Source: an uncultured Chloroflexia bacterium (lineage in GTDB: Bacteria; Chloroflexota; Ktedonobacteria; Ktedonobacterales; JADMIN01). From it: a stretch of 32,000 nucleotides of DNA. The translations under genes and the position numbers were made by a program. How positions within the stretch are numbered: position 1 is the first letter of the stretch; each line of letters opens with the position of its first letter. The notes beneath the pieces are model-generated. The model did no database searches. It worked only from the letters and a program-made list of their open reading frames with translations, and was not told where the DNA came from. Shown piece after piece: positions 8,617-30,196 of this stretch. Location: positions 990,001 through 1,022,000 of the forward strand of contig CAVRAI010000004.1 of the NCBI GenBank assembly GCA_963718915.1, written 5' to 3'.

Positions 8617-10848
8617 TTACTCGAACAACGGACGCTCGATAAGGCGGTAGGACGGGTTGCGCAGGGAGCGTTCGGTAATAGGTTTTGCGGGAACCCCACC
8701 CACAACCGCGAACGGCTCGACATCCTTCGTGACGACAGCCCCTGCCATGACGACAGCCCCCTGACCAATCGTGACACCCTGTAGAATCATTGCCCGTGTC
8801 CCGATCCAGGCATAGTCGTCGATGACGATAGGCCGATAGTCACTGGGGAACCCAGGATCATTGATATCATGGGTTCCAGTAATGAGAGCAACCTCCGCCG
8901 AGATACTGACATTGCTGCCGATAACCAGGCCTCCAGATGTATAGATCAGACATTTCTGGTTAATGACCGTTCCGGTTCCAATCGAGACGCGACGACCGCT
9001 CGTTCGGATACCAGTCATCTGAATGTACGATCCCATCAAGATAGAGGCGTCATGCCCAATGTCCCAACCAAGCGCACGTCGATACCACGCAAGGCGTATC
9101 GTGTGACTTGGCACGTACGCGATGATGTAATTCGTGGCATATTTGATGGATGCCGCGCCAGTGTGGCGAAGTACGGAAGTTCCCCGTCTCACACTCGCTC
9201 GAACGTTGCTTGCAAGATGTGTCCCCCAGAAGGTCACGGCGTTTGCAAGATTCTGGAGCCAGCGCGGCAGTCTATTGGTATCCACCAACTGCACCCTTCC
9301 GCGTTCAACTTGCCAATCCGCACTAGATGAGTATCCGCTGCCACTCAATGCGAGAGCTGTTGACGAACCACTCTGTCTTGTCGCCACTGGCGCATTCACG
9401 GCAGGGGCAACGCTACGTGTCCGCCGAGCAATTGCCAGGTAAAGCGCATCGATGTCCTCGCGCGGAATCGTAGCTAGTGCGGTTGCAATCAACGCATAGG
9501 TAATGCCCGCAGCGGGCAAGATAACCAGGAGCGACAGCTTGCTCAACATGACTACGACGAGAGCCATTGCAAGGCTGGCCGCGAGTGCCTTAACGCCAGT
9601 CGCCATACTTCGTACTGGTAGCATTTTGCGTGGTAAAACGCAGAGCGCAAGCACCATAAGAAGCAGTTCAGTAAATGAGGTCACGATCGCTGCTCCCACG
9701 CCGCCTAAACGCGGAATCAGCAGGACGTTGCCAATGACATTGAATACCAGCGCCGCTCCGGCGATCCATGGCAACTGCTTCTCCATTTTTAAACTCATCA
9801 GGGCTGTTGTCCAGACGGAGTTGAGATAGAGAATCGCCAGTCCAGGCGCAAGAGCCTGCAAGATTGGTATTGACGGGTTAAACTGGTTGTTGTGATAGAG
9901 GTAGCCAATGATATTTGGCGCGGCGACGATAAGCCCCACCATAACAGGAATCCCAGCGACGAGCAGGAAATTCACGGATTTTTCGATAGCCACCTTCATC
10001 TGGCGTTCTGAATTCACCGACAACTTTGCCATCACTGGGTACATCACCGCCACGATGACAATGTTTGGCAGGAAGACCAGGGTGTCAAACAGCCGGTATG
10101 CCGCGCCATAGGTACCAACAGTTGTCGTCGAGGTCATCGCCTGCAAGAACACGGTATCAATGCGATAGTATATGACACCAATGACACCGTAGGTAAGAAA
10201 TGGAATACTCTGCATCACCAGGTTGCGCATGAGTTGGAAGTCGAAGCGCCAATGAATACCCACTAGGCGAATGAACCAGAAGAGTTGCCAGATCGCACCC
10301 GCGCATGCTCCAATCAGCAGTGCGGCCCCCGCAGCGACGACGCCACCTCCCGCGCGCATCCATACGATGGCAATGACCGCGCCGAGACCTTTTTCAATCA
10401 CTAGCGCAATCGCTGGAAATATCTGGCGTTGCGCCGCGGTATGAATCGAACCGAAAGTGCTGCCTGTCGCACTGATAAACAGGACACACCCGCACAGGAT
10501 CACGAGGATACGCTCTTCACGTGCGAAACCAAGCACATTGATCACACCGAGAATGGCGGCAAATAGGGTTGCCCACATCGCCAGTTTCAATATGAGCACG
10601 TTCGCGGGGTAACGCAGCGCCTTTGTTGGGTCTTGCGCCACGTCACGTACTATCTGCTGATTGAAGCCAAATTCGATAGGAAAGCCAACAAGCGCAACAA
10701 AGCTGATAGCGAAGAACAGCTCGCCAAACCGCTCGTCGCCAAGAAAGCGACCATATGCCGCGGTCAGCGCGAGAGTTGATATCCAGGTAATTATTTGACC
10801 GAAGAATGAGACGCCAGTATTGCCGATGACCTTTCGCAAGTTATTCAT
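8617..10848 (-). CDS. Wzx-type polysaccharide flippase (MOP/PST family) fused to a C-terminal left-handed-beta-helix acyl/acetyltransferase
   Basis: 743 aa. Residues 1 to about 470 are polytopic membrane protein with a flippase-like N-terminus (GNTGVSFFGQIITWISTLALTAAYGRFLG). Residues about 471-565 are a Ser/Ala-rich linker without a TM segment. Residues about 566-743 carry hexapeptide repeats (VSIGTGTVIN, LVIGSNVSIS, YAWIGTRAMILQGVTIGQGAVVMAGAVVTKDVEPFAVVGGVPAKPI). The start overlaps the upstream stop as ATGA. Confidence 0.8.
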   Translation of the reverse strand: MNNLRKVIGNTGVSFFGQIITWISTLALTAAYGRFLGDERFGELFFAISFVALVGFPIEFGFNQQIVRDVAQDPTKALRYPANVLILKLAMWATLFAAILGVINVLGFAREERILVILCGCVLFISATGSTFGSIHTAAQRQIFPAIALVIEKGLGAVIAIVWMRAGGGVVAAGAALLIGACAGAIWQLFWFIRLVGIHWRFDFQLMRNLVMQSIPFLTYGVIGVIYYRIDTVFLQAMTSTTTVGTYGAAYRLFDTLVFLPNIVIVAVMYPVMAKLSVNSERQMKVAIEKSVNFLLVAGIPVMVGLIVAAPNIIGYLYHNNQFNPSIPILQALAPGLAILYLNSVWTTALMSLKMEKQLPWIAGAALVFNVIGNVLLIPRLGGVGAAIVTSFTELLLMVLALCVLPRKMLPVRSMATGVKALAASLAMALVVVMLSKLSLLVILPAAGITYALIATALATIPREDIDALYLAIARRTRSVAPAVNAPVATRQSGSSTALALSGSGYSSSADWQVERGRVQLVDTNRLPRWLQNLANAVTFWGTHLASNVRASVRRGTSVLRHTGAASIKYATNYIIAYVPSHTIRLAWYRRALGWDIGHDASILMGSYIQMTGIRTSGRRVSIGTGTVINQKCLIYTSGGLVIGSNVSISAEVALITGTHDINDPGFPSDYRPIVIDDYAWIGTRAMILQGVTIGQGAVVMAGAVVTKDVEPFAVVGGVPAKPITERSLRNPSYRLIERPLFE

Positions 10849-12041
10849 GCATATGCCTCCTTGGCGTGTGGTTTGTGGACAAACCGGGCGGCGAGGACGG
10901 CGAGATCACCACAAGCTGGGAGCGGGTCACGCCAGTTCAGAACAGAGTAGGTGTTGCTGCCAAGCAACGAGCGCGCGTAACTCCAGGGTGTGGTGATGCC
11001 AGCGCGCATCTCCTGGACGCCCGCAAGGAGGTCTGTCGCCGCACGGATCCAGCGCGTGCCATAACGCGGAGCGAGTTGTGGCGATGATTGGCCGATCATT
11101 TGTTGATATTGGAGATAGGGGAGATCAAGCCCACAGGCGATACAGAGTGTATGCCAGCCCCAGGGCCGGATGTTGATATCGAGCAGTTGATACACGCCAT
11201 CGCGGGGATCTTGTTTGAATTCGACTTCTACCATCCCCGACGCGCGCATGTAGCGCAGCAAGCGCTCGGTTGGCTCGATCAGTTCTGGCAGGTATACTGA
11301 CTCAACGAAACTGCTGCCCAGACCGTAATCGATCGGGTATTGGCGTCGGCGACGCGCAGTCATCAACTGTTTGATCTCACCATCAAGACAGAGAGTGGCG
11401 ACTGAAACTTGACTGGCGCCACCACCGGGAATCACTTCCTGTACCATGATCTCATCAGGGCTGACTAAATTTGTCGCGATTCGATATTGTGTATGGAGTT
11501 CTTCGATATTAGCGGCAGGCAGCGCTTTCAAGCGCGCGGCATGTTGCATCCGAATGGAGATGGCGGGCTTGAGGATAACCGGATACCGAAGGTTGAGTTG
11601 ATCCAGGTCCCCTTCATGCGCGGGATACCACGTGCCTGGGTAAGCTACCGCTGATTCGCGCGCCATACGATCAGTGAGCCGCTTGTCGAATGCCCAGCGG
11701 ACGACATCCCATGGCGGCGTTGTTGGTCGATAGATCATCGCTAGCGCATCGCGGTGTTCTGCGACAAGCCCCACTGCGTCATCTTGCGCCGCCACAAGCA
11801 TCCAGTCTTGCAAATGATGCTCGCGCCCAATCTGCACCAGGTAATCAGCAAGCTCGGGGTCTTCCAGTGACCCGTGCCAAGAAAACCGACGTGTCACGTA
11901 GCGCGAAAACCACGCCGAGCGTGGCTGGCTGTCGACGACGATTGCGGGGATGCCATGTCGTCCCAGGCTGCGAATAACACCCAGCGCTTTGAAATCGCTT
12001 CCCAGCACCAGAACACCAGGTATTGGTCTCATATCTCGCAT
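10845..12041 (-). CDS. ATP-grasp carboxylate-amine ligase (COG3919-like, D-aspartate-ligase-type)
   Basis: The N-terminal pre-ATP-grasp segment is GVLVLGSDFKALGVIRSLGRHGIPAIVVD. ATP-grasp core strings are YPVILKP, MVQEVIPGG and MVEVEFKQDPRDGVYQLLDINIRPWG. ATG 12041 has GGAGAAGG 5 nt upstream; the tracked GTG 12080 is less likely. Confidence 0.75.
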   Translation of the reverse strand: MRDMRPIPGVLVLGSDFKALGVIRSLGRHGIPAIVVDSQPRSAWFSRYVTRRFSWHGSLEDPELADYLVQIGREHHLQDWMLVAAQDDAVGLVAEHRDALAMIYRPTTPPWDVVRWAFDKRLTDRMARESAVAYPGTWYPAHEGDLDQLNLRYPVILKPAISIRMQHAARLKALPAANIEELHTQYRIATNLVSPDEIMVQEVIPGGGASQVSVATLCLDGEIKQLMTARRRRQYPIDYGLGSSFVESVYLPELIEPTERLLRYMRASGMVEVEFKQDPRDGVYQLLDINIRPWGWHTLCIACGLDLPYLQYQQMIGQSSPQLAPRYGTRWIRAATDLLAGVQEMRAGITTPWSYARSLLGSNTYSVLNWRDPLPACGDLAVLAARFVHKPHAKEAYA

Positions 12042-12107
12042 CGTCGCCTTCTCCCCCACCTCAACACTTCCAAGGCTCACTCGAGGCGCTCGCCAGCGCC
12101 TTCTCTC

Positions 12108-13337
12108 TCAACCGCGAATCGAGGTTAGACTCTCTGAATTTTCGAGTTCCGTCTGCGCTGTACCACGCGCCAATCGGTGTGTTATGTGGCGAGCCGCAAG
12201 GCCTGTTCCGGCGACAAAGCGCGTCAGTGGGCCGAAGTTGTGGGCCGCTATCGCGCCGACAAAGAACAGACCCGGCACGCTTGATTGGTAGGAGGTATCA
12301 AGCAGCGGCATTGTTCCTGCGCGCTGCACTTGTTCACGCATGACCGGATTAATGAATGTGAGCCGATCAACATCAGGCCGGTATCCGGTACCTGCGAAGA
12401 GATGGTCGACGACTCGCGTTGTTCCGTCTGTGAGCGTCAACTCCAGTTCTTCGCCATGCGGACGAGCTTTTGCAACCTCCGCGCCTGCTGTGATCGCAAC
12501 ATGTCCCTCAACACGATTTCGCAACCATTTCGCGCCAGCTGGCCGTGTTGCGCGCTGGTCAATCTTCGCGCGCAGCTCCTCCGGAAACATGTAATAGAAG
12601 GATGCGAAATGGATAACCCAGGTCAATCCAGCAGGCCCAATGTCGGATGGGGCGTAGAATGCTCGACGAACCAGGCCACCTTTTTCGTAGAGTTTCCGTT
12701 GACTCCAGATGATTGGCCCGTGCGCTATGACCTCTACGTGCGTGGCGCCTGCTTCACTGAGGAATGCCGCAGTCTGGACCGCGCTCTGCCCTCGGCCCAG
12801 AACGGCGACGCGTTTTCCAGCGAACTTGCTGAACTCTTTGTGATCCTGCGTATGTGACGCCAGAGATGGGGGCAAATCGTGGGCAAACGCTGGTAGATGG
12901 GCAAACGATTGAATACCAGTCGCCACGATGGCCGACCCAGCATTAACGCTGCGCCCATCGTTCAGCTCCAGTCGAAACTGGTCACCATCGCGAGCAAGCG
13001 ATTGCACAAAGGCTGAGTCAACGTCTGGAACCGTATTGCGTTGTACCCACCGCCCGTATTCGACGAAATCGGGCAATGGCACTGGCTCCTGCTGTTGATA
13101 TCCGGTAGTAGCAACGTAACGGTCCAGTGTGTAAAGTCTGTGCGGATCGGCAATCGAGGAAGCGGACCAGACGGATTTCAGAAACATCCCATTTGGCATA
13201 CGATCCCAGAAGGCCATAGGCTTGCCGAAAACTAAAGTAGGAATGCCCCGATTTCGTAAATGCGCTGCTATTGAGATGCCATAGGGACCTGCGCCAATGA
13301 TCGCGACTGGATACTGTTTCACCTGTGTTTGCTCCAT
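12108..13337 (-). CDS. FAD/NAD(P)-binding flavoprotein, two-dinucleotide-fold monooxygenase-like (FMO / N-hydroxylase-like)
   Basis: The first Rossmann motif is VAIIGAGPYGISIAAHL and the second is RVAVLGRGQSAVQTAAFL. C-terminal strings FAGTGYRPD and GLFFVGAIAA are also present. ATG 13337 follows a GGTGGGGA run; the GTG 13373 alternative is in the same frame. Confidence 0.7.
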   Translation of the reverse strand: MEQTQVKQYPVAIIGAGPYGISIAAHLRNRGIPTLVFGKPMAFWDRMPNGMFLKSVWSASSIADPHRLYTLDRYVATTGYQQQEPVPLPDFVEYGRWVQRNTVPDVDSAFVQSLARDGDQFRLELNDGRSVNAGSAIVATGIQSFAHLPAFAHDLPPSLASHTQDHKEFSKFAGKRVAVLGRGQSAVQTAAFLSEAGATHVEVIAHGPIIWSQRKLYEKGGLVRRAFYAPSDIGPAGLTWVIHFASFYYMFPEELRAKIDQRATRPAGAKWLRNRVEGHVAITAGAEVAKARPHGEELELTLTDGTTRVVDHLFAGTGYRPDVDRLTFINPVMREQVQRAGTMPLLDTSYQSSVPGLFFVGAIAAHNFGPLTRFVAGTGLAARHITHRLARGTAQTELENSESLTSIRG

Positions 13338-13543
13338 TCCCCACCGCGCGGATGCCGCGCATACGTCCACCACTCATCAGAAATGCGCCCTGTCGCGTGC
13401 CCTCGTTCAAGCGCATCCATGCTCATTCGCACCACGCTGTCGTCGATGCCGCTCATGGCGCCGTTGTCGAGGGCGCGCAGTCTCCGAATTGCGTATATTC
13501 GATAATCAGCGTAATGCGTTTGAGCAGCGATGCCTATATTCAT
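13319..13543 (-). CDS. Possible small hypothetical protein (74 aa) overlapping the flavoprotein start
   Basis: This is the only ORF covering the coding-like, GC-richer stretch 13374-13543. Its stop overlaps ATG 13337 by 19 nt. It has no SD and no recognisable motif. Confidence 0.25.
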   Translation of the reverse strand: MNIGIAAQTHYADYRIYAIRRLRALDNGAMSGIDDSVVRMSMDALERGHATGRISDEWWTYARHPRGGEWSKHR

Positions 13544-13588
13544 CGTGGTAACAAACTGGTGCAGCTAGAATGTTGTCAGTGCAGATAC

Positions 13589-13607
13589 GTATTCGTTTGG
13601 TATTCGT
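13589..13607. repeat. Direct repeat GTATTCGT x2 with 11-bp period
   Basis: Exact copies at 13589-13596 and 13600-13607. Related (A/G)TTCGT(G/T) strings recur near 13675, 13696, 13739 and 13922 in the same intergenic region. Confidence 0.6.
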
Positions 13608-13616
13608 GGTTCTGGC

Positions 13617-13643
13617 AATGTCTCTCGACAAAATGTCTCTCGA
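13617..13643. repeat. Direct repeat AATGTCTCTCGA x2 with 15-bp period
   Basis: Exact 12-nt copies at 13617-13628 and 13632-13643. Confidence 0.6.
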
Positions 13644-14107
13644 TAACATGAGTGCATTCACAGAGAGCTGATTGGTTCGTTACTAGAATGAGGACGTTCG
13701 TGAGGCCTCAATCAGTTCGGTGTGAGAATATCAGTGGATTCGTGCCCTAAGTTGGGTTATCTTCGTCATCATTAACAACGAATCCAACGGCCATTACCAT
13801 TGCGCTTGCACGCTAAGATTTCAGGTTTCCGATGCTCCCTGGGTGTCTTGAGGCGCCTACTTAGCCCTGGCTTGCGTACACGCAGGTGATCTCCACTGTC
13901 TGTTCGCGCTCTCATACCTGTGTTCGTAACGGATTACCCGTAACTTTTCGGACGCATTTATGGCGTGTTTGGATGTACACCTGCGGCACTTCCCATGCAC
14001 CCCTCAAATACATCCGGCCATACCGGGACACCTGCGCTGAGGGGCTACACTGATCTTGTATGTGACTGCTAAACGCCAGCCCATGCTCTATTGGAGGTAC
14101 GAGTAGC

Positions 14108-15118
14108 ATGACCAAATTTCTTGAGATTCTCTTCCGCAATAAAATGAAGCTGGTGGCGCTTCTCCTGCTGCCTGTCCTGGTGAGTGGCATCGTTGTTTTT
14201 TTTCTGCCCCGCACATATCAGGCAACTGCCAGATTGCTTGCGGAGCGACGGTATACCGTGATTGGCGCGACTGGTCCAGAATCTGATCTGCAATCTACGC
14301 CGTCAACGACCCAGGCGACTGCATTGACGGAGTTCTTGCAGACCGAAGACTTTGACGTTGCGGTTGCCAAAGATACCGGCCTCGCAAAGCAGATGAACGT
14401 TCCATCGTCGGATGTACAGCGCTTAAAAGATGCTCTCTATGCTGAGATTTCCACACATGTCTCAGTGACGGCGTCGGGCTCCAACCTGTTTATAATCACC
14501 TACTCAAATAAAGATCCTCTGGTGGCAATGCGGGTGGTGAACGCGGTTGTCAATCAATACGGCGAGCAGAGCGCGTTCTACGCTACCACAGAAGGCCAGC
14601 AACTGCTCAAGAGTCTCCAGGGGCAACTCGACGCCGCCCAGGCGCTTGCAGACAGCAAAACAAAAGCAGCGGCGCAGTACCTCAGTGACCATAACCTCAC
14701 CCCTGCGTCAGCTATTGCCCAAAGCGATCCGCAATATCAAGCGCTCGCCAACGATGCTACCCAGGCAAATACGAATCTCGCGACCATTCGAAATAACTTC
14801 AATAGCTTAGAGTCGCAGGTTAACTCATTAAACCAAGGGCTGTTCCTGACTATCGACGCGCCGACGCTGCCTACGCAACCGGAGTCGCGGGTCAAGTCGC
14901 TACTGGTTGGTGGGGGTGTTGGCCTGGTCATTGGGCTACTTGCGGCCATTGGCTTTTTTCTCATCCTGGTACGGCTAGACCAGTCGGTGTACTCGTCTGC
15001 TGAGATGCCAGCGATTACGGACTATCCTGTGCTGATTCAGATTCAAAAGCTCCCGCGTCGGTCGGCAACATGGATTACCCGCACGAACAGCAAACTGATC
15101 ACAGAAAAGGGAGCGTAG
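14108..15118 (+). CDS. Wzz-type polysaccharide co-polymerase / chain-length determinant
   Basis: N-terminal TM segment followed by FFLPRTYQATARLL. A long coiled-coil-like periplasmic/extracytoplasmic region follows. A proline motif (PTLPTQPESR) sits before the C-terminal TM segment LLVGGGVGLVIGLLAAIGFFLIL. GGAGG lies at 14093-14097. Confidence 0.8.
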   Translation: MTKFLEILFRNKMKLVALLLLPVLVSGIVVFFLPRTYQATARLLAERRYTVIGATGPESDLQSTPSTTQATALTEFLQTEDFDVAVAKDTGLAKQMNVPSSDVQRLKDALYAEISTHVSVTASGSNLFIITYSNKDPLVAMRVVNAVVNQYGEQSAFYATTEGQQLLKSLQGQLDAAQALADSKTKAAAQYLSDHNLTPASAIAQSDPQYQALANDATQANTNLATIRNNFNSLESQVNSLNQGLFLTIDAPTLPTQPESRVKSLLVGGGVGLVIGLLAAIGFFLILVRLDQSVYSSAEMPAITDYPVLIQIQKLPRRSATWITRTNSKLITEKGA

Positions 15119-15201
15119 TCGTGCCCGCAGCCCAGCGGACTGACTGAACCACAGGTTTACTGAATCAACTCATCACATCGGCTGGCTAAAGTGGAGGGAC
15201 A

Positions 15202-16053
15202 ATGAAGACCATTGATTCGCGGAATCATAAGTTGAGACAAGATGGTCATATGAGGGAAGAAGTGATCATCGATGGCGAGAAGGGCACAGAGGACGAAAAC
15301 CTGGCAATGCCAACACGAGCGGTGACATCGCAGTTCATTACTTCGCTATCCCCAAAGAATGGCTCGCTTTCTCCAAAGGGTGCTCCGGTGCTTTCGAAGA
15401 AGCCTCGGCCACTCTCTGAGCGGGAATCTGGCTCTATCGCCCGCCTTCAGGCCGAGTTCCTCCATGTGAGTTTGCCGCTCTTCTTCTCCGACCAGTTTCC
15501 CGTGCGTTCGATTGGAGTTACCAGTGCGGTTGCTGGCGAAGGTAAGACGCTGTCTGCTTTGCTGGCCAGCCATGCATTGGCGACAAGCTCGCGTCGGCCT
15601 GTATTGCTGGTCGAGTGTGACTGGGATCGCCCGACGCTAAGCCGCGACCTCCATCTGCCAGCGTCGCCAGGTCTTTCGGAGTGGCTGCGCGGAACGACCG
15701 ATCGCTCTGATGTCCGCCACCAATTCATGCCTAATCTGACGGTTGTGCCCGCTGGTTTGGGCGGCCCGGATGCGATGACAGCTCTCGCTGAGCTTCAGCG
15801 GCCAGAATTACGTGAGCGATTAGCCGACCCTGATGAGCTGATGATTCTCGATCTACCATCAGTGCTTGGCTCATATTATGGAGTACTTGCCGCACGATTA
15901 GCCGAGGCGTTGTTCTTGGTTGTGCGCGCTGGCTCGACACCGGCCTCATTTATCACTCGCGCAACTGACGAATTGAAGGATCTTCGCATTGAAGGCATCA
16001 TCCTCAACCAGGTTCACACGCGGGTACCACGCTGGCTTCAAAGTCTGCTCTAG
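15202..16053 (+). CDS. BY-kinase-like P-loop ATPase (CpsD/CapB-type) lacking a C-terminal tyrosine cluster
   Basis: Walker A is SAVAGEGKT, Walker A' is VLLVECDWDRP and Walker B is LMILDLPS, followed by IEGIILNQV. The C-terminus ...HTRVPRWLQSLL has no Tyr. The protein has an N-terminal extension of about 95 aa. GGAGG lies 4 nt before ATG 15202. Confidence 0.75.
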   Translation: MKTIDSRNHKLRQDGHMREEVIIDGEKGTEDENLAMPTRAVTSQFITSLSPKNGSLSPKGAPVLSKKPRPLSERESGSIARLQAEFLHVSLPLFFSDQFPVRSIGVTSAVAGEGKTLSALLASHALATSSRRPVLLVECDWDRPTLSRDLHLPASPGLSEWLRGTTDRSDVRHQFMPNLTVVPAGLGGPDAMTALAELQRPELRERLADPDELMILDLPSVLGSYYGVLAARLAEALFLVVRAGSTPASFITRATDELKDLRIEGIILNQVHTRVPRWLQSLL

Positions 16054-16064
16054 GGGGGACGAGC

Positions 16065-16199
16065 ATGGTCACAACCTCAGCCTTGCTCGTGGCTTTTCTT
16101 GCAATAGGCTGCTTCACGCGCAAGTTTTCGGGCCGCACGCGTCTGCTGATGATGGGCGCCATCGTTGTCGGAATTGTCTTGTTAATGCGGGGTCAATAA
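16065..16199 (+). CDS. Small hydrophobic protein, 44 aa, two predicted TM segments (below the ORF-track size cutoff)
   Basis: Hand translation gives MVTTSALLVAFLAIGCFTRKFSGRTRLLMMGAIVVGIVLLMRGQ*. A GGGGGGA SD lies 5 nt upstream of ATG 16065. The ORF fits between the upstream stop (16053) and the downstream ATG (16206). A basic loop (TRKFSGRTR) separates two hydrophobic stretches. Confidence 0.6.
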   Translation: MVTTSALLVAFLAIGCFTRKFSGRTRLLMMGAIVVGIVLLMRGQ

Positions 16200-16205
16200 A
16201 GTGCC

Positions 16206-17906
16206 ATGACAGCCACACTCAAACGACCCGCCGAGACGCCTCCTACGTCGGAGCCAAATTCATCACCCAAATTTGAGCATTCCGTCACCAGAAAGAGTTC
16301 CAGAGCGTATCTCGTTCTGTTTGTGGCAACGCTTCTGCTCACCCCGTTATTGATTCTCGTGGGGGCCGATCAGGGGTATGGCACGATATTGGCCGCACTA
16401 GCCGCGCTGATCGCTTTGGCGCTCGTGCCGTGGAAGCCAATTTGGGGGCTGTATCTGATTGTTATCTGTGCTGTGGTCGTCGAGCAGGAACCGCTTCCGG
16501 GTACGCCGATTGGCACGGATCACCTTAATGTCTTCTACTGGCCAACACACCTGCAGGGGCTACCCGAGCGTCCAATAGGGTTCTTTATCCTGGCGATTCT
16601 GTTCTTCCTGGTGATCACTGCAGTGCTTTTCCGTCGGCGCGCACTCTACGGGGGCAGGCTCTTTTATCCATTCCTGTTCTTCTTCGCCTGTATGGCCGTT
16701 GGTGTGCTTCACGGTCTGGCGACGGGTGGGTCATTTCGCATCATCGTGCTTGAGATTCGACCATGGTGGTACTTCTTCGTCTCATATATTCTTGCCTACA
16801 ATATTGTGTCTGAAGTGAAACATGTGCGAAACATCATCTGGATCACGGTTCTCGGCACAGCTATCAAGGGTGTTCAGGGTGTTTTCATCGTCTACACCTA
16901 CTATAGTGGCCAGATCGAGGGACACAACGAGATCATGGCGCACGAACAGTCATTCTTCTTTGTGCTCGTGCTCCTCCTGCTGGTCATGATGCTGCTACAT
17001 CACTTTCAGCGTGCTCTCTTCATCGCCATCCTCTTCTCACTGCCATGTCTATTGCTGGCGCTGGTGGCAAATAATCGGCGTGCCGACTACGTGGCGCTGC
17101 TGCTTGGAATTCTGATCGCATGGACGATGGTGATTCTGGTGAAACCGGCGTCGCGCCGCGCGCTCATCACTGTGCTTGCCATATGTTTGTTGTTCGGAGG
17201 CGTTTATGTGCTCGCCTTCCAGAAGTCTACCGGCGCTCTCGGCCAGCCTGCGCGCGCGGTGATCTCGGTCTTCAACCCCAGTGCTTCGGATGAACGCGAT
17301 GCGGCCTCAAATGCGTATCGTGTGGTTGAGAACTACGATCTCAAATGGACCGAGCAGACAAGTCCGATCCTGGGTTTTGGTTTTGGCAAGCCATTTCTGC
17401 AACCAGTGGCGCTGCCGAACGTGCTCGAACTGGATCCTTACTACCTCTACATACCCCATAACAACGTCCTTTGGGTCTGGATGCGCCTGGGGCCGTTGGG
17501 ATTTAGCGCACTTTGGTATCTCTTCGGGTCCGCGATTGTAGCGGGGTGCATGATCGTTCGCCGGTTGAGGGATCCACAATTACAATTCTTCGCGATCTTC
17601 ACGCTCGCGACGGTCGTGATGGAGGTCATCCTGGCGTACGGCGACTACCAATTCTTCTTCTATCGCAACATGATATATGTTGGTGTCGCCCTCGGTGTCT
17701 TGATGAAATTACCGGCCATCGAGCGGGCGGCAAGGGGGGAGCCATCGAGCCATACTGACCCGCTGGACGACGCAATTCCCACCGCCCGCAAGAAACCGCG
17801 TCCACGCGCGCGACTCGATATTCCACACTCGCTGCCGATTCCTGTCTCGGCAATGACGGCGCGTGTGACTGGTGACAATTTCAGGTGGAAGTGGTCGTAT
17901 CCATGA
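16206..17906 (+). CDS. O-antigen ligase / Wzy-polymerase-like polytopic membrane protein
   Basis: 566 aa with at least 10 hydrophobic segments. A large loop (SDERDAASNAYRVVENYDLKWTEQ...GFGFGKPF) is typical of the O-antigen ligase (Wzy_C) family. The C-terminal tail is basic. Confidence 0.7.
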   Translation: MTATLKRPAETPPTSEPNSSPKFEHSVTRKSSRAYLVLFVATLLLTPLLILVGADQGYGTILAALAALIALALVPWKPIWGLYLIVICAVVVEQEPLPGTPIGTDHLNVFYWPTHLQGLPERPIGFFILAILFFLVITAVLFRRRALYGGRLFYPFLFFFACMAVGVLHGLATGGSFRIIVLEIRPWWYFFVSYILAYNIVSEVKHVRNIIWITVLGTAIKGVQGVFIVYTYYSGQIEGHNEIMAHEQSFFFVLVLLLLVMMLLHHFQRALFIAILFSLPCLLLALVANNRRADYVALLLGILIAWTMVILVKPASRRALITVLAICLLFGGVYVLAFQKSTGALGQPARAVISVFNPSASDERDAASNAYRVVENYDLKWTEQTSPILGFGFGKPFLQPVALPNVLELDPYYLYIPHNNVLWVWMRLGPLGFSALWYLFGSAIVAGCMIVRRLRDPQLQFFAIFTLATVVMEVILAYGDYQFFFYRNMIYVGVALGVLMKLPAIERAARGEPSSHTDPLDDAIPTARKKPRPRARLDIPHSLPIPVSAMTARVTGDNFRWKWSYP

Positions 17907-20337: not shown

Positions 20338-20389
20338 TCGATAAAACGATTCGTCTGACTTGAGATATAAGGCGGGGGAGGGTGACGTC

Positions 20390-21616: not shown

Positions 21617-21649
21617 GGATAAGGGAATTGTGTACCAGGAGTGCTATTG

Positions 21650-22258: not shown

Positions 22259-22318
22259 TCTATGGCGCTTGTCATCCGTGTTCGCACGCGGTGAAATCAT
22301 TGCATAGAGGGAAAATGT

Positions 22319-23659
22319 ATGAATCTCGTCGCATTCTCTATCAAAACGAAAGGGGCGCATAACTTCGCCCGCCGCCTATGGACCGTCTTCGCGCGCTTCG
22401 GCTTCTCGGATGCCCGCAGCCGCCGCACACTCCTCTCGATTCTGGCAACTGTCCGCCAGTATGATGGCAATCCGACGTTCTTTATTCCCGCCGTTGTCTT
22501 ACGCCGTCATCATGAATTGATTAACGAGATTGCGCTATGCGGCGCGGAGATAGGCATTCACGGCTATGTCCACAACGATTACCGGAGCCTGAGTGACGTC
22601 AGCCAGCATCAGCAGACTCAGCAAGCCATGGCGGTATTCGATGATGTGCAATTGCCATTTCAAGGATTCCGCAACCCCTACCTTGGCTGGACAGAAGATG
22701 CTGTGCGCTCATTTGCCGCGCTGGGCTTTGGATATGACAGCAATGAAGCTATCGTGCATGATGTCGTCGATCTGACTAAACTCACCCCAACGATCCGCTC
22801 TGGCTGGGTGAAGTCGTTGTCGCTCTTCCAGGCCATCTCTCCCAGCGCGTACACACTCCGCCCACACTTTGAGGGCGAATTGGCCCGCATTCCCACCAGT
22901 ATCCCAGATGATGAAATGCTCTACGACCGGCTTCGGATTACCGATCAGGTAAAGCTGGGTAACATCTGGAGCGAGGTGATGACACGAGTCTATGCGCTCG
23001 GTGGCATATATGTGCTGAACCTTCACCCCGAGCGTGGTGTTTTATGTCGTCTCGCGCTCGCCAAGTTGTTGTCTTTCTCCCAGCAGCAGCCACTACCTGT
23101 CTGGGTGGCTTCGCTGCACGATGTTGAAACGTGGTGGCGCGAGCGAAGAGCGTTCCATTTCTCGTTCGCTCCGTCCGGTGAGGCCAGCTGGAGTGTCACA
23201 GCAACGTGCAGCGCTAGAGCTACTGTGCTTGCGCGGCGCCTCACAGTGGACGGCGCAACGATGCATGAGTGGACGGGCGAGGATCGCAGCGTCAAGGGGC
23301 GAGAATTCACGGTGCATGCGGCCAGTTGTCCATGCGTCGCGCTTTCGCCTCACACGTCCAGCGAGGTAGAAGACTTTTTGGGTGAGCAGGGCTACGCGGT
23401 TCTTCGGATAGATGCTGCCGCGGCGCCAGGCTACTCGCTGTATCTGGATATGCCCAGTGGATTTGGTACGACACGCCAGGAGCAAACCGCCCAGCGCAGC
23501 GCGCTCGTCTCGCAAATCGAGGCGCTCGACAAGCCACTCCTGCGCTTCGGCGTCTGGCCAGACGGTGCTCGCGCAGCCCTCTCAATTACGGGTGACATTG
23601 ATTCGATCACGATTCAGGACTTCTTCCTTCGGATCGTCGAAGCGCGCCAGCATCCGTAG
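22319..23659 (+). CDS. Polysaccharide-deacetylase-like (CE4/NodB-homology) protein with atypical motif layout
   Basis: TFFIPAVV...GAEIGIHGYVH is MT2-like, GFRNPY is MT3-like (RxPY) and YVLNLHPE is MT5-like. No canonical TFDD lies upstream of MT2. A SITGDIDSIT string sits 15 aa from the C-terminus. An AGAGGGA SD precedes ATG 22319. Confidence 0.55.
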   Translation: MNLVAFSIKTKGAHNFARRLWTVFARFGFSDARSRRTLLSILATVRQYDGNPTFFIPAVVLRRHHELINEIALCGAEIGIHGYVHNDYRSLSDVSQHQQTQQAMAVFDDVQLPFQGFRNPYLGWTEDAVRSFAALGFGYDSNEAIVHDVVDLTKLTPTIRSGWVKSLSLFQAISPSAYTLRPHFEGELARIPTSIPDDEMLYDRLRITDQVKLGNIWSEVMTRVYALGGIYVLNLHPERGVLCRLALAKLLSFSQQQPLPVWVASLHDVETWWRERRAFHFSFAPSGEASWSVTATCSARATVLARRLTVDGATMHEWTGEDRSVKGREFTVHAASCPCVALSPHTSSEVEDFLGEQGYAVLRIDAAAAPGYSLYLDMPSGFGTTRQEQTAQRSALVSQIEALDKPLLRFGVWPDGARAALSITGDIDSITIQDFFLRIVEARQHP

Positions 23660-25904: not shown

Positions 25905-26947
25905 CTATCCAAGATGCTTGTACAGAATGCCTCCCAGGGTAGATGCAACGGGCAGAGGAAGACGTTTCCAACATGCTGTCAATACCTGATATTTACGGCT
26001 TGTCTCAGAGGTCGATGCCAGACCAGCCACCTGTGGCCAATAGTAATATGGCAATGGCTCTGCGGTGGCCCCCCATTTGCGCTTGTATTCCATGAGACCA
26101 AGATTGTCCCGCGCGGTTCGCCCCATGTCGAAGATTTGATAGCCCTTACTTGTTGCCCAGGTAATTGACTCCCACATCAGGAGGTTGTTTGGCGCCAGGT
26201 GGAGCGCGTGCTCTTCGGAAGCGCCGTAGGCATACCGTACGGTATCGCCTGAGGCGAAGAGCACCATGCCGGCGATGGTTCTCCCCTCATGCTCGGCAAA
26301 GAGCACCTGCACTGTGCCATCCGCGCCGAAACGATCCCACAGGCCGCGAAAGAAGGCGCGGGGTTGTGCTGGCATGCCGTGTTTGCCCGAGCGTGTGCCG
26401 ACATGCAATCGGTGGTAGGTGTCCATATCTTCGCGCTGCTGGGCGAAGCGGATAGTGACACCCATCTTGCGCGACTTCTTCACCTGGCGTTGCACTGGTT
26501 TCTGCACGCCTGACCAGAGACTCGCTTCATTTGAAGCCAATCCCAGCCGCCAACTGACGAAGTTGTCAGTGGCGACGAAATCATCGCGCCCTTCGAGAAG
26601 CGCTGACGAACCAGTACGCAACTCGACATAACGCGCGCGTTGCTTTTCCCTAGCTCAATGGCCTGGTCAACCAGTCGGTGTGCGGTCGCGCTGTCCGCAG
26701 CAACCAGCGGGCAGGTGTCCGAAAATGGGAGTGAGACGATCCGACGCCCAGTGAGTGGACTGGTCAAGGCGCACACTGGCAGGTAGCCCTGAAGCGCTCC
26801 GTCGCTACTATGTGCCTCAAGCCGCGTTACGGTGAAACCATAGGTTGACTGGATCAGGTCGAGCCAGCGCTCGTCTGTATAAAACCCATTGCCACGTGGA
26901 GCGTGAGCAGACTGAACCTGGCTGATTTCCTGCACAGAAACCTCCAA
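25905..26947 (-). pseudogene. FemAB-family / GNAT-fold aminoacyl(acyl)transferase, reading frame broken at a (CG)4 tract
   Basis: The N-terminal part is ORF 26480..26947, with TTG start 26947 and AGGAGG 7 nt upstream. The C-terminal part is ORF 25905..26621. The second frame is open upstream to about 26650 (AREKQRARYVELRTGSS). Removing one CG from CGCGCGCG (26632-26639) yields a continuous ...AIELGKSNARYVELRTGSSALLEG... ORF of about 346 aa. The FemAB-like core is VLFAEHEGRTIAGMVLFASGDTVRYAYGAS...NNLLMWESITWATSKGYQIFDMGRT. Confidence 0.7.
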
Positions 26948-26986: not shown

Positions 26987-27973
26987 TTATGCGATTTGCC
27001 GCTTGCGGAGTGATGCCTCGGCAGCGGTGAGCAGCCGCACGACTTCCAGCCCGATGCGACCGTTTGCTTCAGGCTGATCGCCAGTGCGAATTGAGCGCGC
27101 AAAGTCTTCGCACTCGAGGCGCAGCGGTTCCATCCATTCGATGTGGGGAATCGTGATAGCGCCATGGCGGTACGACACGATAGGATCAACACCGCGATCC
27201 GCGCCCTTATTGAAAATCTTGAGCATCTCGGCGGGATTGGTATCATCATAGATCGCCATGCGCTTGTCGCCGATAACCGTCACTCGTCGAACTTTGTCCG
27301 GGTGCAACCAGCTGACGTGGATATGTGCGGTCGTGCCGCAGTCATATTCGAGATTCAAGTGGGCAACATCGTAAATGGTAGGGTGCAGATGCGCGTGTGC
27401 GTGCGCTTCGATCCGCGACGGCGACTTACCCAGCAACGAAAGCAAGATAGAGGCGTCATGCGGGGCGAGATCCCAGATGACATCAATATCGCTTCGGAAC
27501 AGCCCGAGATTCAGTCGCTCAATTTCCACACAATAGATGTCGCCAAGTTCACCGTCCTGAATCAACTGGCGTAGTTCCCTGACCGCCGGGCTGTATTGGA
27601 ATGTGTGCCCAACCATCAAGATCAGGTTCTCCTGCTCTGCCAGCGCAATGAGCTCCTCCGCCTCGGCGACGCAGGCTGTTAGCGGCTTTTCTACAAGCAC
27701 ATGTTTGCCATGGAGTAGCGCCTTCTTTGCCAAGTCGAAGTGGGTGGAAACCGGGGTGGCGATGACGACAGCATCGACATCCGAGTTGAAGACATCCTCG
27801 ATCCGCTCGGTGATCTTGATCCAGGGGCGCTCATCTTTCGCCTTTTTCAGCGCAAGCGGATTCAGATCGGCTACGATCTCCAGCGAAGCTTGCGGGAGTG
27901 ATTCGAGGTTACGTGCGAGCTTTGGACCCCAATATCCCAAACCAATCAATCCGAATCGCAATTGTTGCATCAT
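26987..27973 (-). CDS. Gfo/Idh/MocA-family NAD(P)-dependent sugar oxidoreductase (WbpB/WlbA-like)
   Basis: The N-terminal Rossmann segment is LRFGLIGLGYWGPKLARNL, and EKPL and MVGHTFQY strings follow. The preferred start is ATG 27973 (MMQQLRFG...); the tracked GTG is 27994. Confidence 0.8.
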   Translation of the reverse strand: MMQQLRFGLIGLGYWGPKLARNLESLPQASLEIVADLNPLALKKAKDERPWIKITERIEDVFNSDVDAVVIATPVSTHFDLAKKALLHGKHVLVEKPLTACVAEAEELIALAEQENLILMVGHTFQYSPAVRELRQLIQDGELGDIYCVEIERLNLGLFRSDIDVIWDLAPHDASILLSLLGKSPSRIEAHAHAHLHPTIYDVAHLNLEYDCGTTAHIHVSWLHPDKVRRVTVIGDKRMAIYDDTNPAEMLKIFNKGADRGVDPIVSYRHGAITIPHIEWMEPLRLECEDFARSIRTGDQPEANGRIGLEVVRLLTAAEASLRKRQIA

Positions 27974-28058
27974 CAAGGCACCATCCTCATTCACTCATTC
28001 GGCCCCTATTGCCGAGATTGTCATCGACGCGCCATCTCACCGCAAACTCTTCGCGTCA

Positions 28059-29174
28059 TCAATGGGTCGGTGTTGGAGTCAACACATCGACCAGGGCATC
28101 GCATACCTGCTGAATTTGTTCGTCGGTTAGCTCCGCGTACATAGGAAGGGAGAGAATTCGCTCGGCGGCTGCTTCGGTGACGGGGAGCGAACCGGGGGCG
28201 TAGCCGTATGTTTGGCATGCCGGCTGAAGGTGGAGCGGAATTGGATAATGGACGCCGGTCAGAATGCCCCGTTCGGTGAGTAGATTACGAACGCGATCGC
28301 GGTTTGGTACCTCGACCACATACACATAAAAGGCATTTTGCGCCCATGGCGCCGATTCGGGCGTCGAAGCGACAACACCGCGCAGTTTGTCAGTGTAGGA
28401 CGCCGCATGTTCCCGCCGCTCCTCATTCCAGCGATCCAGATAGGGGAGCTTGATTCGCAGAATCGCCGCCTGAATCTCGTCCATTCGCCAATTGGCGCCC
28501 ATGACCTCATGTTCGTAACGTACGCGCGAGCCGTGGTCACGCACCACGCGCATCCGCTCAGCCAGGTCGGGATTGTTGGTGACGCAGATGCCAGCTTCAC
28601 CGTACGCTCCGAGGGTCTTGCTGCAGTACAGACTGAAGCAGCCGATATCGCCGATGCCACCGATGGGGCGTCCCTTATAGGTAGCGCCGTGTGCCTGTGA
28701 GGCGTCCTCAATGACGCGCAGCCCATGTTTGCGGGCGATGTCGAGGATCGGATCCATGTCGGCGGGATGCCCAAAAAGATGTACTGGCATGATTGCCCGT
28801 GTCTTTGGGGTAATAACTCGCTCGATGTCATGCCAATCTATGGTGTAGGTGTCGGGGTCGATATCGACAAAAACTGGGGTTGCCCCTACCATTGCGATGG
28901 CTTCAACGGTGGCGATGAAGGTGTTGGCCACTGTAATGACTTCATCACCCGTCCCAATCTCGCAGGCACGCAGCGCCAACGCGAGCGCATCGGTGCCATT
29001 GGAGACACTCACGCTATCGAGACTTTCGCAATACTGCGCGAACTCGCGTTCGAACGCCAGCTGCTCCGGACCTAAATAGAGTGACATCCCGTCGAGCACT
29101 CGTTCAATAGCCGCGAGTACGTCGGGCTTGATCGTCTGATATTGAGCCTTGAGATCAACTAATGGAACCGTCAT
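28059..29174 (-). CDS. DegT/DnrJ/EryC1/StrS-family PLP-dependent sugar aminotransferase (WbpE/WlbC-like)
   Basis: Strings VPLVDLKAQY, SNGTDALALALRA, HLFGHPADMD and DASQAHGA. The PLP-lysine context is CFSLYCSKTLGAYGEAG. The preferred start is ATG 29174; the tracked TTG is 29183. Confidence 0.85.
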   Translation of the reverse strand: MTVPLVDLKAQYQTIKPDVLAAIERVLDGMSLYLGPEQLAFEREFAQYCESLDSVSVSNGTDALALALRACEIGTGDEVITVANTFIATVEAIAMVGATPVFVDIDPDTYTIDWHDIERVITPKTRAIMPVHLFGHPADMDPILDIARKHGLRVIEDASQAHGATYKGRPIGGIGDIGCFSLYCSKTLGAYGEAGICVTNNPDLAERMRVVRDHGSRVRYEHEVMGANWRMDEIQAAILRIKLPYLDRWNEERREHAASYTDKLRGVVASTPESAPWAQNAFYVYVVEVPNRDRVRNLLTERGILTGVHYPIPLHLQPACQTYGYAPGSLPVTEAAAERILSLPMYAELTDEQIQQVCDALVDVLTPTPTH

Positions 29175-29220
29175 ACGTTGCAACCCCCCAATTCACCGCA
29201 TCACATCTTTGCGAGGCGAC

Positions 29221-29491: not shown

Positions 29492-29518
29492 TGAGGGTGC
29501 GGACAACGGAGGGTTGCT

Positions 29519-30196
29519 ATGGTCGCCCAGGAAGTTTTGGTCAGAGATGACATTAGCATTGAGGGCCGCTATTTGCGCCTCAAGCGAGCAACGGATATCG
29601 TTCTCACGGTGATCGCGCTGATTCCTCTTAGCATGGTCATGCTGGTGACGGCGATTATCATCCGTCTCGACTCTCCTGGCCCGGCGATCTATAGGCAGAC
29701 ACGCTACGGGGTCAACGGCACGCGATTCACGTTCTACAAGTTCCGGTCGATGTACCAGAACGTCGCCAGTGATGTGCATGAGAAAGCTACTGCTACCTTT
29801 ATGGATGGGGCAGGCGAGCTGAATCATAGCGATAAGAACATGCCCTATAAGCTGGGTGACGACTCGCGAGTTACACGAGTTGGCAGGTTCATACGCAAAA
29901 CGAGTATTGACGAACTGCCCCAGTTGTGGAATATAGTGAAGGGCGACATGTCCATCGTTGGACCTCGTCCTCCAGTTGAGTACGAGATCAGGCGCTACAG
30001 TGCGCGACATTTCCTTCGCCTGGCTGGCAAGCCCGGTCTGACAGGTACCTGGCAGGTGTTCGGGCGCGGCCGGGTGACCTTTGAAGAAATGATCGACCAA
30101 GATATTAGTTACCTGGAGACGCAATCACTGCTCTACGACCTCAAGCTGATGGTTCTGACTGTTCCAGTTATGATTACCGGCAGGGGCGGAGCGTGA
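29519..30196 (+). CDS. Bacterial sugar transferase (small monotopic phosphoglycosyl transferase, PglC/WbaP-C-terminal type); priming enzyme
   Basis: KRATDIVLTVIALIPLSMVMLVTAIIIRLDSPGPAIYRQTRYG is the re-entrant helix. FTFYKFRSM, DELPQLWNIVKGDMSIVGPRP and PGLTGTWQV follow. The antisense ORF 29444..30124 is a shadow. Confidence 0.9.
   Translation: MVAQEVLVRDDISIEGRYLRLKRATDIVLTVIALIPLSMVMLVTAIIIRLDSPGPAIYRQTRYGVNGTRFTFYKFRSMYQNVASDVHEKATATFMDGAGELNHSDKNMPYKLGDDSRVTRVGRFIRKTSIDELPQLWNIVKGDMSIVGPRPPVEYEIRRYSARHFLRLAGKPGLTGTWQVFGRGRVTFEEMIDQDISYLETQSLLYDLKLMVLTVPVMITGRGGA

Follow-up and report, generated by a model that had tools for sequence, protein, structure and literature searches.

A lineage-conserved Wzx/Wzy glycan locus of Ktedonobacterales with a predicted 3-amino-sugar pathway and a putative acyl- or aminoacyl-tailoring module

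The diacetamido-sugar pathways of Pseudomonas aeruginosa (WbpB/WbpE/WbpD), Bordetella (WlbA/WlbC/WlbB) and Acidithiobacillus (GnnA/GnnB) employ a characteristic trio of enzymes, namely a Gfo/Idh/MocA oxidoreductase, a DegT-family aminotransferase and a left-handed beta-helix (LbH) protein. The same trio is encoded in the locus described here, which occupies positions 8617-30196 of a 32-kb stretch of DNA (contig CAVRAI010000004.1, in the following the window) from a Ktedonobacterales (Chloroflexota) bacterium. Compared to the described pathways, the locus lacks WbpA and WbpI and contains additional enzymes of acyl transfer. Its four tailoring genes encode a FemAB/FemX-like transferase, a CE4-like deacetylase, an ATP-grasp ligase and a flavoprotein monooxygenase-like (FMO-like) protein. 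TIGR03019-like families, to which the first of these is related, have been labelled 'PEP-CTERM system-associated' since 2006, and no function is known for them.

Loci of this type, 3-amino-sugar pathways and all of the protein families involved have been described before. What is new is that the 'PEP-CTERM-associated' tailoring genes together with the pair of FMO-like and ATP-grasp genes constitute a conserved module, which occurs across phyla with or without an exosortase. This module is common in the fetched Ktedonobacteria loci and occurs in Thermoleophilia as well; in neither group was an exosortase detected at a distance of up to 10 kb. Lineage variants were observed as well, comprising a fusion of Wzx with an LbH domain, a kinase-like ATPase without tyrosine cluster and an apparently permuted CE4-like protein. 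It is considered probable that this lineage-conserved Wzx/Wzy locus directs the synthesis of a surface heteropolysaccharide with a 2,3-diamino-2,3-dideoxy-hexose derived from UDP-GlcNAc, which the tailoring genes would modify with aminoacyl or other acyl groups.

Conservation of the putative tailoring module and the exosortase question

For the comparison, one genome per GTDB species was scanned with an alignment of the FemAB-like protein, and 80 loci were fetched. Ktedonobacteria account for 48 of the 80, including the cultured Ktedonobacter sp. SOSP1-85 and Ktedonosporobacter rubrisoli, the latter with a complete genome. Hundreds to thousands of homologs exist for the FemAB-like, ATP-grasp and FMO-like proteins. 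The best 120 listed for each are about 50-91% identical, a few truncated fragments aside, and the named organisms among them all belong to the Ktedonobacterales or Ktedonobacteraceae, with one assigned only to the Chloroflexota. A tblastn search of all window proteins against the loci showed that the gene set recurs at 35-95% identity in shuffled order, in agreement with the called genes. Locus L086, which originates from another species, is colinear with positions 3910-20052 of the window at 82.7% nucleotide identity, flanking housekeeping genes included. Since the gene set recurs and the colinearity is retained, the locus is no island but belongs to the stable gene complement of the class, in which it is widely conserved. 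A preliminary description, made from the sequence of the window alone, had called this an unusual context for such genes; the neighbourhood comparison revealed that this context is the rule in Ktedonobacteria and extends to Thermoleophilia.

In every lineage examined, the FMO-like gene lies directly upstream of the ATP-grasp gene in the same orientation, including the Thermoleophilaceae locus L064 and the Acidobacteriota loci L067 and L084, and in L005 and L013 the FMO-like, ATP-grasp and FemAB-like genes form one run. The FemAB-like gene is linked to the dehydrogenase and/or the aminotransferase gene in loci of Anaerolineales, Thermoleophilaceae, Solirubrobacterales, Ignavibacteria and Acidobacteriaceae. 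A remote CE4-like homolog of about 450 aa was found in 18 of the 32 non-ktedonobacterial loci, mostly at a distance of at most about 3 kb from the FemAB-like gene and, in roughly half of the cases, of at most about 250 bp.

The assignment to PEP-CTERM systems has to be regarded separately. For five proteins of the locus, a PEP-CTERM/XrtA-associated model was the best NCBIfam model:

FemAB-like transferase (intact form): TIGR03019, 183.9 bits, curated cutoff 260.35
GT4 glycosyltransferase: TIGR03087 (stp1), 245.6 bits, curated cutoff 316.65
Wzz: TIGR03007, 68.4 bits, curated cutoff 278.85
kinase-like protein: TIGR03018, 78.2 bits, curated cutoff 230.65
CE4-like protein: TIGR03006, 37.8 bits, curated cutoff 276.2

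Since all five scores lie below the curated cutoffs, the proteins do not belong to the PEP-CTERM accessory families as defined by these models. Accordingly, the affinities to such families that the preliminary description had pointed out hold as best-model assignments below cutoff for the FemAB-like, GT4 and kinase-like proteins, with Wzz and the CE4-like protein in addition, and are lost for the ligase-like Wzy_C protein, which showed no match to the PEP-CTERM ligase model TIGR03097. FemAB-like proteins that adjoin exosortases in Acidobacteriota reached 112-138 bits with TIGR03019, while the ktedonobacterial ones scored higher with 184-207 bits. As the exosortase-adjacent proteins score lower still, a sub-threshold value with this model says little about function.

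In Acidobacteriota and Aminicenantes, where the FemAB-like homologs are distant (28-36% identity), exosortases were recognized by TIGR02602 with 114-132 bits at a cutoff of 105.55. A hidden Markov model (HMM) for exosortases was built from six verified XrtA/XrtC-like sequences that score above the TIGR02602 cutoff. Altogether, seven loci of these two groups contain an exosortase (L055, L057, L067, L070, L071, L079 and L084, with L070 added by the HMM), and several of the enzymes immediately adjoin the FemAB-like gene. Among the loci fetched, this proximity of exosortase and FemAB-like genes was confined to these two groups. The clearest case of the tailoring module directly adjoining an exosortase is L067 (8503-16659), where genes for a pyruvyl transferase, the FemAB-like, CE4-like, FMO-like and ATP-grasp proteins, the exosortase and an FkbM methyltransferase follow each other co-oriented, with the exosortase gene coming right after the ATP-grasp gene.

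The same HMM detected no exosortase in the window, in the 48 ktedonobacterial loci (+/-10 kb) and in ten Solirubrobacterales/Thermoleophilia loci, in line with what had been noticed for the window before. The other open reading frames (ORFs) with multiple transmembrane segments in the monoderm loci are Wzx, Wzy, MFS, PMT, FUSC or histidine kinase proteins. Ktedonobacteria and Thermoleophilia are generally regarded as having a Gram-positive-type envelope. Haft et al. (2006; PMC1569441) reported PEP-CTERM systems exclusively from bacteria that possess an outer membrane. Because no exosortase was found near the module in the monoderm lineages examined, the module is regarded as a glycan-tailoring module and not as a part of protein sorting.

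Gene content, predicted 3-amino-sugar pathway and export machinery

The gene content of positions 8617-30196 was determined by ORF listing and translation followed by Pfam and NCBIfam profile scans. The region is a single contiguous Wzx/Wzy-type glycan block, whose 16 genes are arranged in four transcription units. Unit 1 (minus strand, 13373 down to 8617) comprises the FMO-like, ATP-grasp and Wzx-LbH genes, of which the latter two ORFs overlap by 4 bp. Unit 2 (plus strand, 14108-23659) contains the genes for Wzz, the kinase-like protein, the Wzy_C protein, a GT4, a GT2 and a second GT4 glycosyltransferase (GT), the LbH N-acetyltransferase and the CE4-like protein. Unit 3 (minus strand, 29183 down to 23745) encodes the DegT aminotransferase, the Gfo/Idh/MocA dehydrogenase, the FemAB-like protein and the GH39-like/F5_F8-type C/SGNH protein, while unit 4 (plus strand, 29519-30196) consists of the priming Bac_transf phosphoglycosyl transferase (PGT) alone. 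Pfam matches above the gathering score were obtained for all components except the kinase-like protein, which was matched by NCBIfam only. Each component of the earlier gene list is thus found at its position; the count of 20 proteins given with that list has to be lowered to 16, and from the three to four GTs exactly three remain, with no fourth one present and the PGT counted apart.

8617-10848, minus strand: Wzx (MOP flippase, about aa 1-490) with a C-terminal LbH O-acetyltransferase (about aa 590-743); PF01943 72.7 bits, PF13440, PF03023, Hexapep, NCBIfam WcaF family 85 bits
10845-12041 (ORF to 12080), minus strand: ATP-grasp carboxylate-amine ligase, 398 aa from Met14; PF15632 38 bits, cutoff 29.1
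12108-13337 (ORF to 13373), minus strand: class B flavoprotein monooxygenase-like protein, 409 aa; PF13738 75.6 bits, PF13434 34.1 bits
13374-14107, no strand: divergent intergenic region of 734 bp between the FMO/ATP-grasp/Wzx and the Wzz to CE4 operons, without supported ORF
14108-15118, plus strand: Wzz-like chain-length determinant (polysaccharide co-polymerase, PCP); PF02706 27.3 bits, cutoff 25.5; TIGR03007 as above
15202-16053, plus strand: P-loop ATPase resembling bacterial tyrosine kinases (BY-kinases), without tyrosine cluster; TIGR03018 as above and TIGR01007 50 bits, both sub-cutoff, no Pfam match
16206-17906, plus strand: Wzy_C-domain polymerase or ligase-like membrane protein; PF04932 42.4 bits, cutoff 31.7; NF041870 Wzy_EPS 80 bits
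17885-19105, plus strand: GT4 glycosyltransferase, stp1-like; full-length TIGR03087 match, PF13692/PF13439
19093-20337, plus strand: membrane-associated GT2 glycosyltransferase, EpsU-like; NF041865 252.7 bits, cutoff 700; PF13641 93.6 bits
20360-21616, plus strand: second GT4 glycosyltransferase; PF00534, PF13692, PF13579; TIGR04063 stp3 61.6 bits, sub-cutoff
21641-22258, plus strand: putative 3-amino-sugar N-acetyltransferase (WlbB/WbpD-like LbH); Protein Data Bank (PDB) entry of WlbB, 3mqg, E=1.8e-40
22319-23659, plus strand: putative CE4-like deacetylase, cytoplasmic, apparently circularly permuted; PF01522 38.4 bits
23745-25895, minus strand: GH39-like glycosidase with F5/8-type C domain (carbohydrate-binding module (CBM)-like) and SGNH esterase, N-terminally anchored or secreted, 716 aa; PF13472 50.9, PF01229 26.3, PF22633 22.7 bits
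25905-26935 (ORF to 26947), minus strand: FemAB/FemX-like transferase with tandem GNAT (GCN5-related N-acetyltransferase) domains, frameshifted in the window; TIGR03019 as above, PF13480, PF02388, PDB FemX E=1.8e-7
26987-27994, minus strand: UDP-GlcNAc 3-dehydrogenase-like Gfo/Idh/MocA oxidoreductase; NF040723 164.8 bits as best NCBIfam model, PDB 3c1a and 7bvj
28059-29183, minus strand: DegT-family sugar 3-aminotransferase; PF01041 417 bits
29519-30196, plus strand: small monotopic PGT, the priming enzyme; PF02397 202.6 bits, TIGR03025 259 bits

The translated N-terminus of the stp1-like GT4 contains the motif PRPTWGAGIRNYHLLRALA. No Rfam match was obtained for the intergenic region 13374-14107, and the equivalent gap in L086 is likewise without called gene. 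Upstream of the locus, a tRNA-Gln (CTG) at 3918-3991 on the minus strand was the sole Rfam/ARAGORN match in the whole 32 kb. The flank at the Wzx end (5672-8398) encodes an M55 D-aminopeptidase, a histidine phosphatase and an APH-like kinase, all syntenic in L086. Right downstream of the PGT lies a gene for an OmpR/MtrA-like response regulator (30719-31534, plus strand), which may control the locus; a histidine kinase to go with it was not found before the end of the window.

The 3-amino-sugar pathway that had been proposed for the locus is borne out by homology for all three steps. The best PDB match of the LbH N-acetyltransferase was WlbB from Bordetella (3mqg), followed by FdtD and QdtC, all of them 3-amino-sugar N-acetyltransferases. 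For the DegT aminotransferase, the single best match was 7b0d (E=4.2e-116), named glutamine--scyllo-inositol transaminase, behind which the C3-aminotransferases DesV, QdtB and WbpE were found (E 1e-103 to 1e-79). The best NCBIfam model of the dehydrogenase was that of UDP-GlcNAc 3-dehydrogenase (NF040723), and 3c1a and then 7bvj were its top PDB matches. The PDB search names 7bvj only 'Oxidoreductase, NAD-binding'; we take it to be GnnA. Neither a UDP-GlcNAc 6-dehydrogenase (WbpA), nor a 2-epimerase (WbpI), nor a 4,6-dehydratase is encoded in the locus. Without these enzymes, the product would most simply be UDP-GlcNAc3N or UDP-GlcNAc3NAc and not a uronic acid. For the same reason, UDP-GlcNAc (as used by enzymes of the GnnA or archaeal type) is the more likely substrate compared to a uronic acid.

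For the Wzx/Wzy-dependent pathway, the PGT (PF02397), Wzx (PF01943), Wzy_C (PF04932) and Wzz (PF02706) matches all lie above the gathering scores. The fusion of Wzx with an LbH domain, which had been noticed before, is genuine. An intact fused ORF of 744 aa is present in both L086 and L087, two independent assemblies of one relative, and an assembly artefact was therefore rejected. In 13 more distant ktedonobacterial loci, Wzx and LbH are separate neighbouring genes. Among the loci compared, the fused form (743/744 aa; L086:9194-11428) is confined to the sublineage of the source organism. It constitutes a Rosetta-stone link between O-acetylation and flipping.

The kinase-like protein contains a Walker A (AVAGEGKT) and a Walker B motif (ILDLPS), together with a variant A' motif (ECDWDR). 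A C-terminal tyrosine cluster, as expected for a BY-kinase, was not found: the last 30 aa contain no tyrosine, and the same holds true for about 20 ktedonobacterial orthologs (L005-L052). Instead, the ktedonobacterial orthologs end in a conserved IPRW[IL][RQ]Q[IL]L sequence (IPRW..QLL tail). The acidobacterial homologs from exosortase loci carry 5-6 tyrosines within the last 25 residues. The motif composition suggests that the ktedonobacterial ATPase may be a non-autophosphorylating regulator. The split of Wzz and kinase into two proteins had been taken as a sign of a monoderm cell. Since the exosortase-linked acidobacterial kinases are stand-alone proteins as well (305-332 aa), this marker was rejected, and the assumption of a monoderm host rests on the taxonomic position in the Ktedonobacterales.

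The GH39-like/CBM/SGNH protein consists of an N-terminal hydrophobic anchor followed by the GH39-like, F5/8-type C and SGNH domains, with weak PDB matches to a GH39 xylosidase and to SGNH esterases. The GH39 similarity is borderline, as the PF01229 score only just exceeds the cutoff of 26 bits. In some relatives the GH39-like, CBM and SGNH modules are individual genes. In L002 and L003 (13377-17423, minus strand), which belong to a relative of 70% identity, the GDSL/GH and the CE4-like genes are separated by an inserted gene, whose product of 1348 aa contains DMFA2_C, CBM_4_9 and Ig-like (Cep192/HYDIN/ASH) domains. A pair of serine recombinases is also encoded in L002, where the left half of the locus is missing, although it is kept in L003; this suggests a rearrangement.

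Putative tailoring enzymes and competing explanations

In the window, the FemAB-like gene is interrupted, as one base is missing from a T4/T5 run at about 26643-26647 and two ORFs result (26480-26947 and 25905-26621). An intact gene of 343 aa is present in the metagenome contig L001. Over 5.5 kb, L001 and the window are 99.84% identical, with 8 single-nucleotide differences and this one position as the sole indel, and the remaining genes of the window match the lengths of their orthologs. The frameshift is likely a homopolymer error of a long-read assembly; a real inactivation in the source strain would be the alternative. A true pseudogene was set aside as unproven, since the only indel compared to L001 is a 1-bp homopolymer change and the other genes are intact. 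The intact protein shows the FemABX fold signature with PF02388 (47.2 bits, cutoff 24), next to PF13480 (76.9 bits) and the PDB match to FemX.

The CE4-like protein exceeds the PF01522 cutoff of 23.1 bits and contains the HxxxH (HGYVH) and RNPY motifs, while the N-terminal Asp motif is replaced by TFFIPA. A motif-1-like sequence, WPDG..SITGDIDS (ITGDID), is found at the C-terminus instead. This segment aligns with the N-terminal WPEG..THDVE of the FemAB-adjacent homologs of about 450 aa, whereas HxxxH and RxPY keep their positions, which suggests that the protein may be circularly permuted compared to these homologs. Forms from other phyla suited for comparison are located at L067:11000-12364 and L064:10705-12033.

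For the ATP-grasp protein, the PF15632 match above cutoff is complemented by fold matches of an AlphaFold2 (AF2) model (pLDDT 79.7), the closest being 2pn1, RizA, BL00235, PylC and LysX; the last four, along with carbamoyl-phosphate synthetase (CPS) domains, gave E-values of about 1e-14 to 1e-17. Among these, RizA and BL00235 are L-amino-acid ligases. The orthologs are 398 aa long, and homologs are named 'D-aspartate ligase' by the Joint Genome Institute (JGI). By sequence, a search of the PDB with the single protein gave 0 matches and a profile search gave marginal matches only. The model of the FMO-like protein (pLDDT 78.3) shows the fold of class B monooxygenases with two dinucleotide-binding domains. 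Its best global TM-scores (0.67-0.69) were obtained with amine N-hydroxylases of siderophore pathways, and the PvdA/SidA/DesB-type signature PF13434 is matched above its threshold (34.1 bits, cutoff 21.3), but with a lower score than PF13738. The top NCBIfam and fold matches pointed to a bacillithiol disulfide reductase of the YpdA type, which was rejected as unlikely because the protein is about 80 residues longer and shows better TM-scores to N-hydroxylases; moreover, its FAD motif GAGPYG presumably comes without the active-site Cys of YpdA.

No N-terminal signal or transmembrane segment was found in the translated sequences of the four tailoring proteins, which fits enzymes that draw on tRNA, ATP and NADPH inside the cytoplasm. 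The tailoring genes most likely N-acylate or aminoacylate the amino sugar in this compartment, as far as can be judged from the families they belong to. We infer a decoration of the sugar with amino acids, and the conserved linkage of the genes makes this stronger.

A possible sequence of reactions can be outlined. By homology, the GnnA/WlbA-like dehydrogenase and the WbpE/QdtB-like aminotransferase would form UDP-GlcNAc3N, which the WlbB-like acetyltransferase could N-acetylate. Undecaprenyl phosphate would be primed by the small PGT and the repeat unit extended by the three GTs, before the Wzx-fused LbH domain would O-acetylate it at the cytoplasmic face, just ahead of flipping. Wzy, Wzz and the tyrosine-less P-loop ATPase would be responsible for polymerisation and chain length, and outside the cell the anchored GH39-like/SGNH enzyme may trim or de-O-acetylate the polymer. 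The cytoplasmic module of FemX-like, CE4-like, FMO-like and ATP-grasp proteins would need an unsubstituted amine of the sugar as its target, which may be the newly formed 3-amine or a 2-amine that the CE4-like enzyme has uncovered, and would swap acetate for an aminoacyl or other acyl group. For this, the FemX-like enzyme would take an activated donor, for example aminoacyl-tRNA, the ATP-grasp enzyme would add a second amide at the expense of ATP, and the substituent would be oxidised by the flavoprotein, possibly through N-hydroxylation.

Several points weigh against such a tailoring. With a WlbB-like N-acetyltransferase dedicated to this step in the locus, plain acetylation of the 3-amine may be all that happens. 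The donor of the FemAB-like protein, being of the tandem-GNAT type, could be acyl-CoA instead of aminoacyl-tRNA, and its gene is frameshifted in the source assembly. Ranked by fold E-value, YpdA and small FMOs come first for the FMO-like protein, not N-hydroxylases. No literature was found on the chemistry of any TIGR03019 member or of an ATP-grasp/FMO pair, and nothing relevant on characterised members or on a ktedonobacterial glycan structure. Furthermore, the negative result for exosortases is limited to the 32 kb and to +/-10 kb of the loci.

The explanation that competes best with aminoacyl or acyl tailoring is a conventional glycan with N-acetyl or simple acyl groups only. The FemAB-like protein would then be an acyl-CoA-dependent GNAT, and the ATP-grasp/FMO pair would provide a non-amino-acid side group or belong to another, co-located pathway. 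The higher rank of the PF13480 GNAT match over PF02388 can be explained in this way, as can the JGI name 'CelD/BcsL family acetyltransferase' for many FemAB homologs, the WlbB-like enzyme in the locus and the ATP-grasp protein without sequence-level PDB match. However, the FemAB-like protein has the length of two domains and matches TIGR03019 over its full length as well as FemX, and the FMO-like, ATP-grasp and FemAB-like genes are persistently co-located in three phyla. In addition, a CE4-like deacetylase adjoining the FemAB-like gene implies that acetate is removed and another group put on. A conventional glycan is therefore rated as unlikely, while it deserves to be kept in mind.

Considerably less probable is a protein-linked glycan of an S-layer or surface glycoprotein, with the Wzy_C protein acting as O-oligosaccharyltransferase (O-OTase). 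PF04932 is common to O-antigen ligases and O-OTases, and the acidobacterial L067 contains a match to the 'putative O-glycosylation ligase' model TIGR03097. Contrary to this, Wzy_EPS was the best NCBIfam model of the Wzy_C protein, no second Wzy_C paralog is present in the locus, and the combination of Wzz, BY-kinase-like ATPase and a self-directed GH39-like hydrolase is typical of polymerised exopolysaccharide (EPS) or capsule.

A role in peptidoglycan synthesis, with the FemX-like, D-Asp-ligase-like and CE4-like proteins acting on precursors (cross-bridge formation, GlcNAc deacetylation) and their genes merely co-located with EPS genes, appears highly improbable. The nearest characterised relatives do use UDP-MurNAc-pentapeptide, as reflected by the FemX match and the labels 'D-aspartate ligase' and 'FemX'. 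Nevertheless, the genes lie inside Wzx/Wzy/PGT/GT loci in 48/48 Ktedonobacteria loci and within exosortase EPS loci of diderms, and the CE4-like protein is devoid of an export signal, although the site of action of peptidoglycan deacetylases is the outer side of the membrane.

A dispersed exosortase-type system, with a divergent exosortase/archaeosortase-like enzyme and its substrates elsewhere in the genome, would be compatible with an inspection that covered 32 kb in the source genome and +/-10 kb in the related loci, and with an HMM built from six XrtA/XrtC-like sequences, but can hardly be credited, since genuine systems keep the exosortase inside the EPS locus (as in the seven loci named above), the remaining multi-transmembrane ORFs of the monoderm loci have other Pfam identities and PEP-CTERM was reported from outer-membrane bacteria only (PMC1569441).

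Within aminoacyl or acyl tailoring, a more specific chemistry can be proposed, which we regard as doubtful at present. Ktedonobacteria and Thermoleophilia, like exosortase-bearing Acidobacteriota, might put a short peptide-like or hydroxamate-type substituent on a 2,3-diamino sugar of their EPS by means of a tRNA-dependent FemX-like enzyme, an ATP-grasp ligase and an N-hydroxylase-like flavoprotein. If true, chemistry in the style of peptidoglycan stems or siderophores would have been transferred to an exopolysaccharide, and the long-orphan 'PEP-CTERM-associated FemAB' family would receive its first function.

Implications and comparison with known systems

The conservation of the module where no exosortase was found near the locus, together with its linkage to 3-amino-sugar genes, separates it from protein sorting and narrows its likely role to the N-(amino)acylation of amino sugars. 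It also draws attention to a naming bias in automated annotation, and culturable organisms are identified in which the chemistry is testable. If an EPS bearing amino acids or hydroxamates were confirmed, it would add a new class to the glycan modifications of abundant soil bacteria.

Compared to XrtA/PEP-CTERM EPS loci, the locus shares the five best models, and the FemAB/CE4-like/FMO/ATP-grasp module stands beside exosortases in L067 and L084. The differences comprise the sub-cutoff scores, the lack of a detectable exosortase in the window and the 48 loci, and a host taken as monoderm. Furthermore, the kinase of the window is devoid of the tyrosine-rich tail of the acidobacterial homologs, and its CE4-like protein belongs to another, apparently permuted family.

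FemX from Weissella viridescens, a tRNA-dependent enzyme that transfers an amino acid onto an amine of a UDP-linked precursor, resembles the FemAB-like protein by its tandem GNAT domains, with the sequence similarity given above. The D-aspartate ligase Aslfm from Enterococcus faecium is an ATP-grasp ligase with the same type of reaction, and here the tie consists in the JGI annotation only. In contrast to both enzymes, which serve cell-wall synthesis, the genes described here lie in a Wzx/Wzy glycan context and the acceptor is probably an amino sugar. A comparable two-step logic is known from NodB and NodA, where a CE4-type deacetylase and a cytoplasmic N-acyl transferase deacetylate GlcNAc and then re-N-acylate it; the resemblance is confined to this logic, and the transferases belong to unrelated families.

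With regard to the assembly machinery, NCBIfam models of the Wzx/Wzy EPS pathway of Myxococcus xanthus (NF0418xx: EpsZ, EpsU, Wzx_EPS, Wzy_EPS) ranked first or second for the GT2, Wzx, Wzy and PGT proteins. The scores are far below the cutoffs, and Myxococcus is a diderm whose outer-membrane export parts are absent from the locus. PslG of P. aeruginosa is a GH39-like hydrolase encoded in an EPS locus. It has in common with the protein found here that a GH39-like glycosidase is encoded inside a biosynthetic locus and presumably acts on the polymer produced there, while the hydrolase of the window, with its borderline GH39 similarity, additionally has a CBM-like domain and an SGNH esterase as fusion partners.

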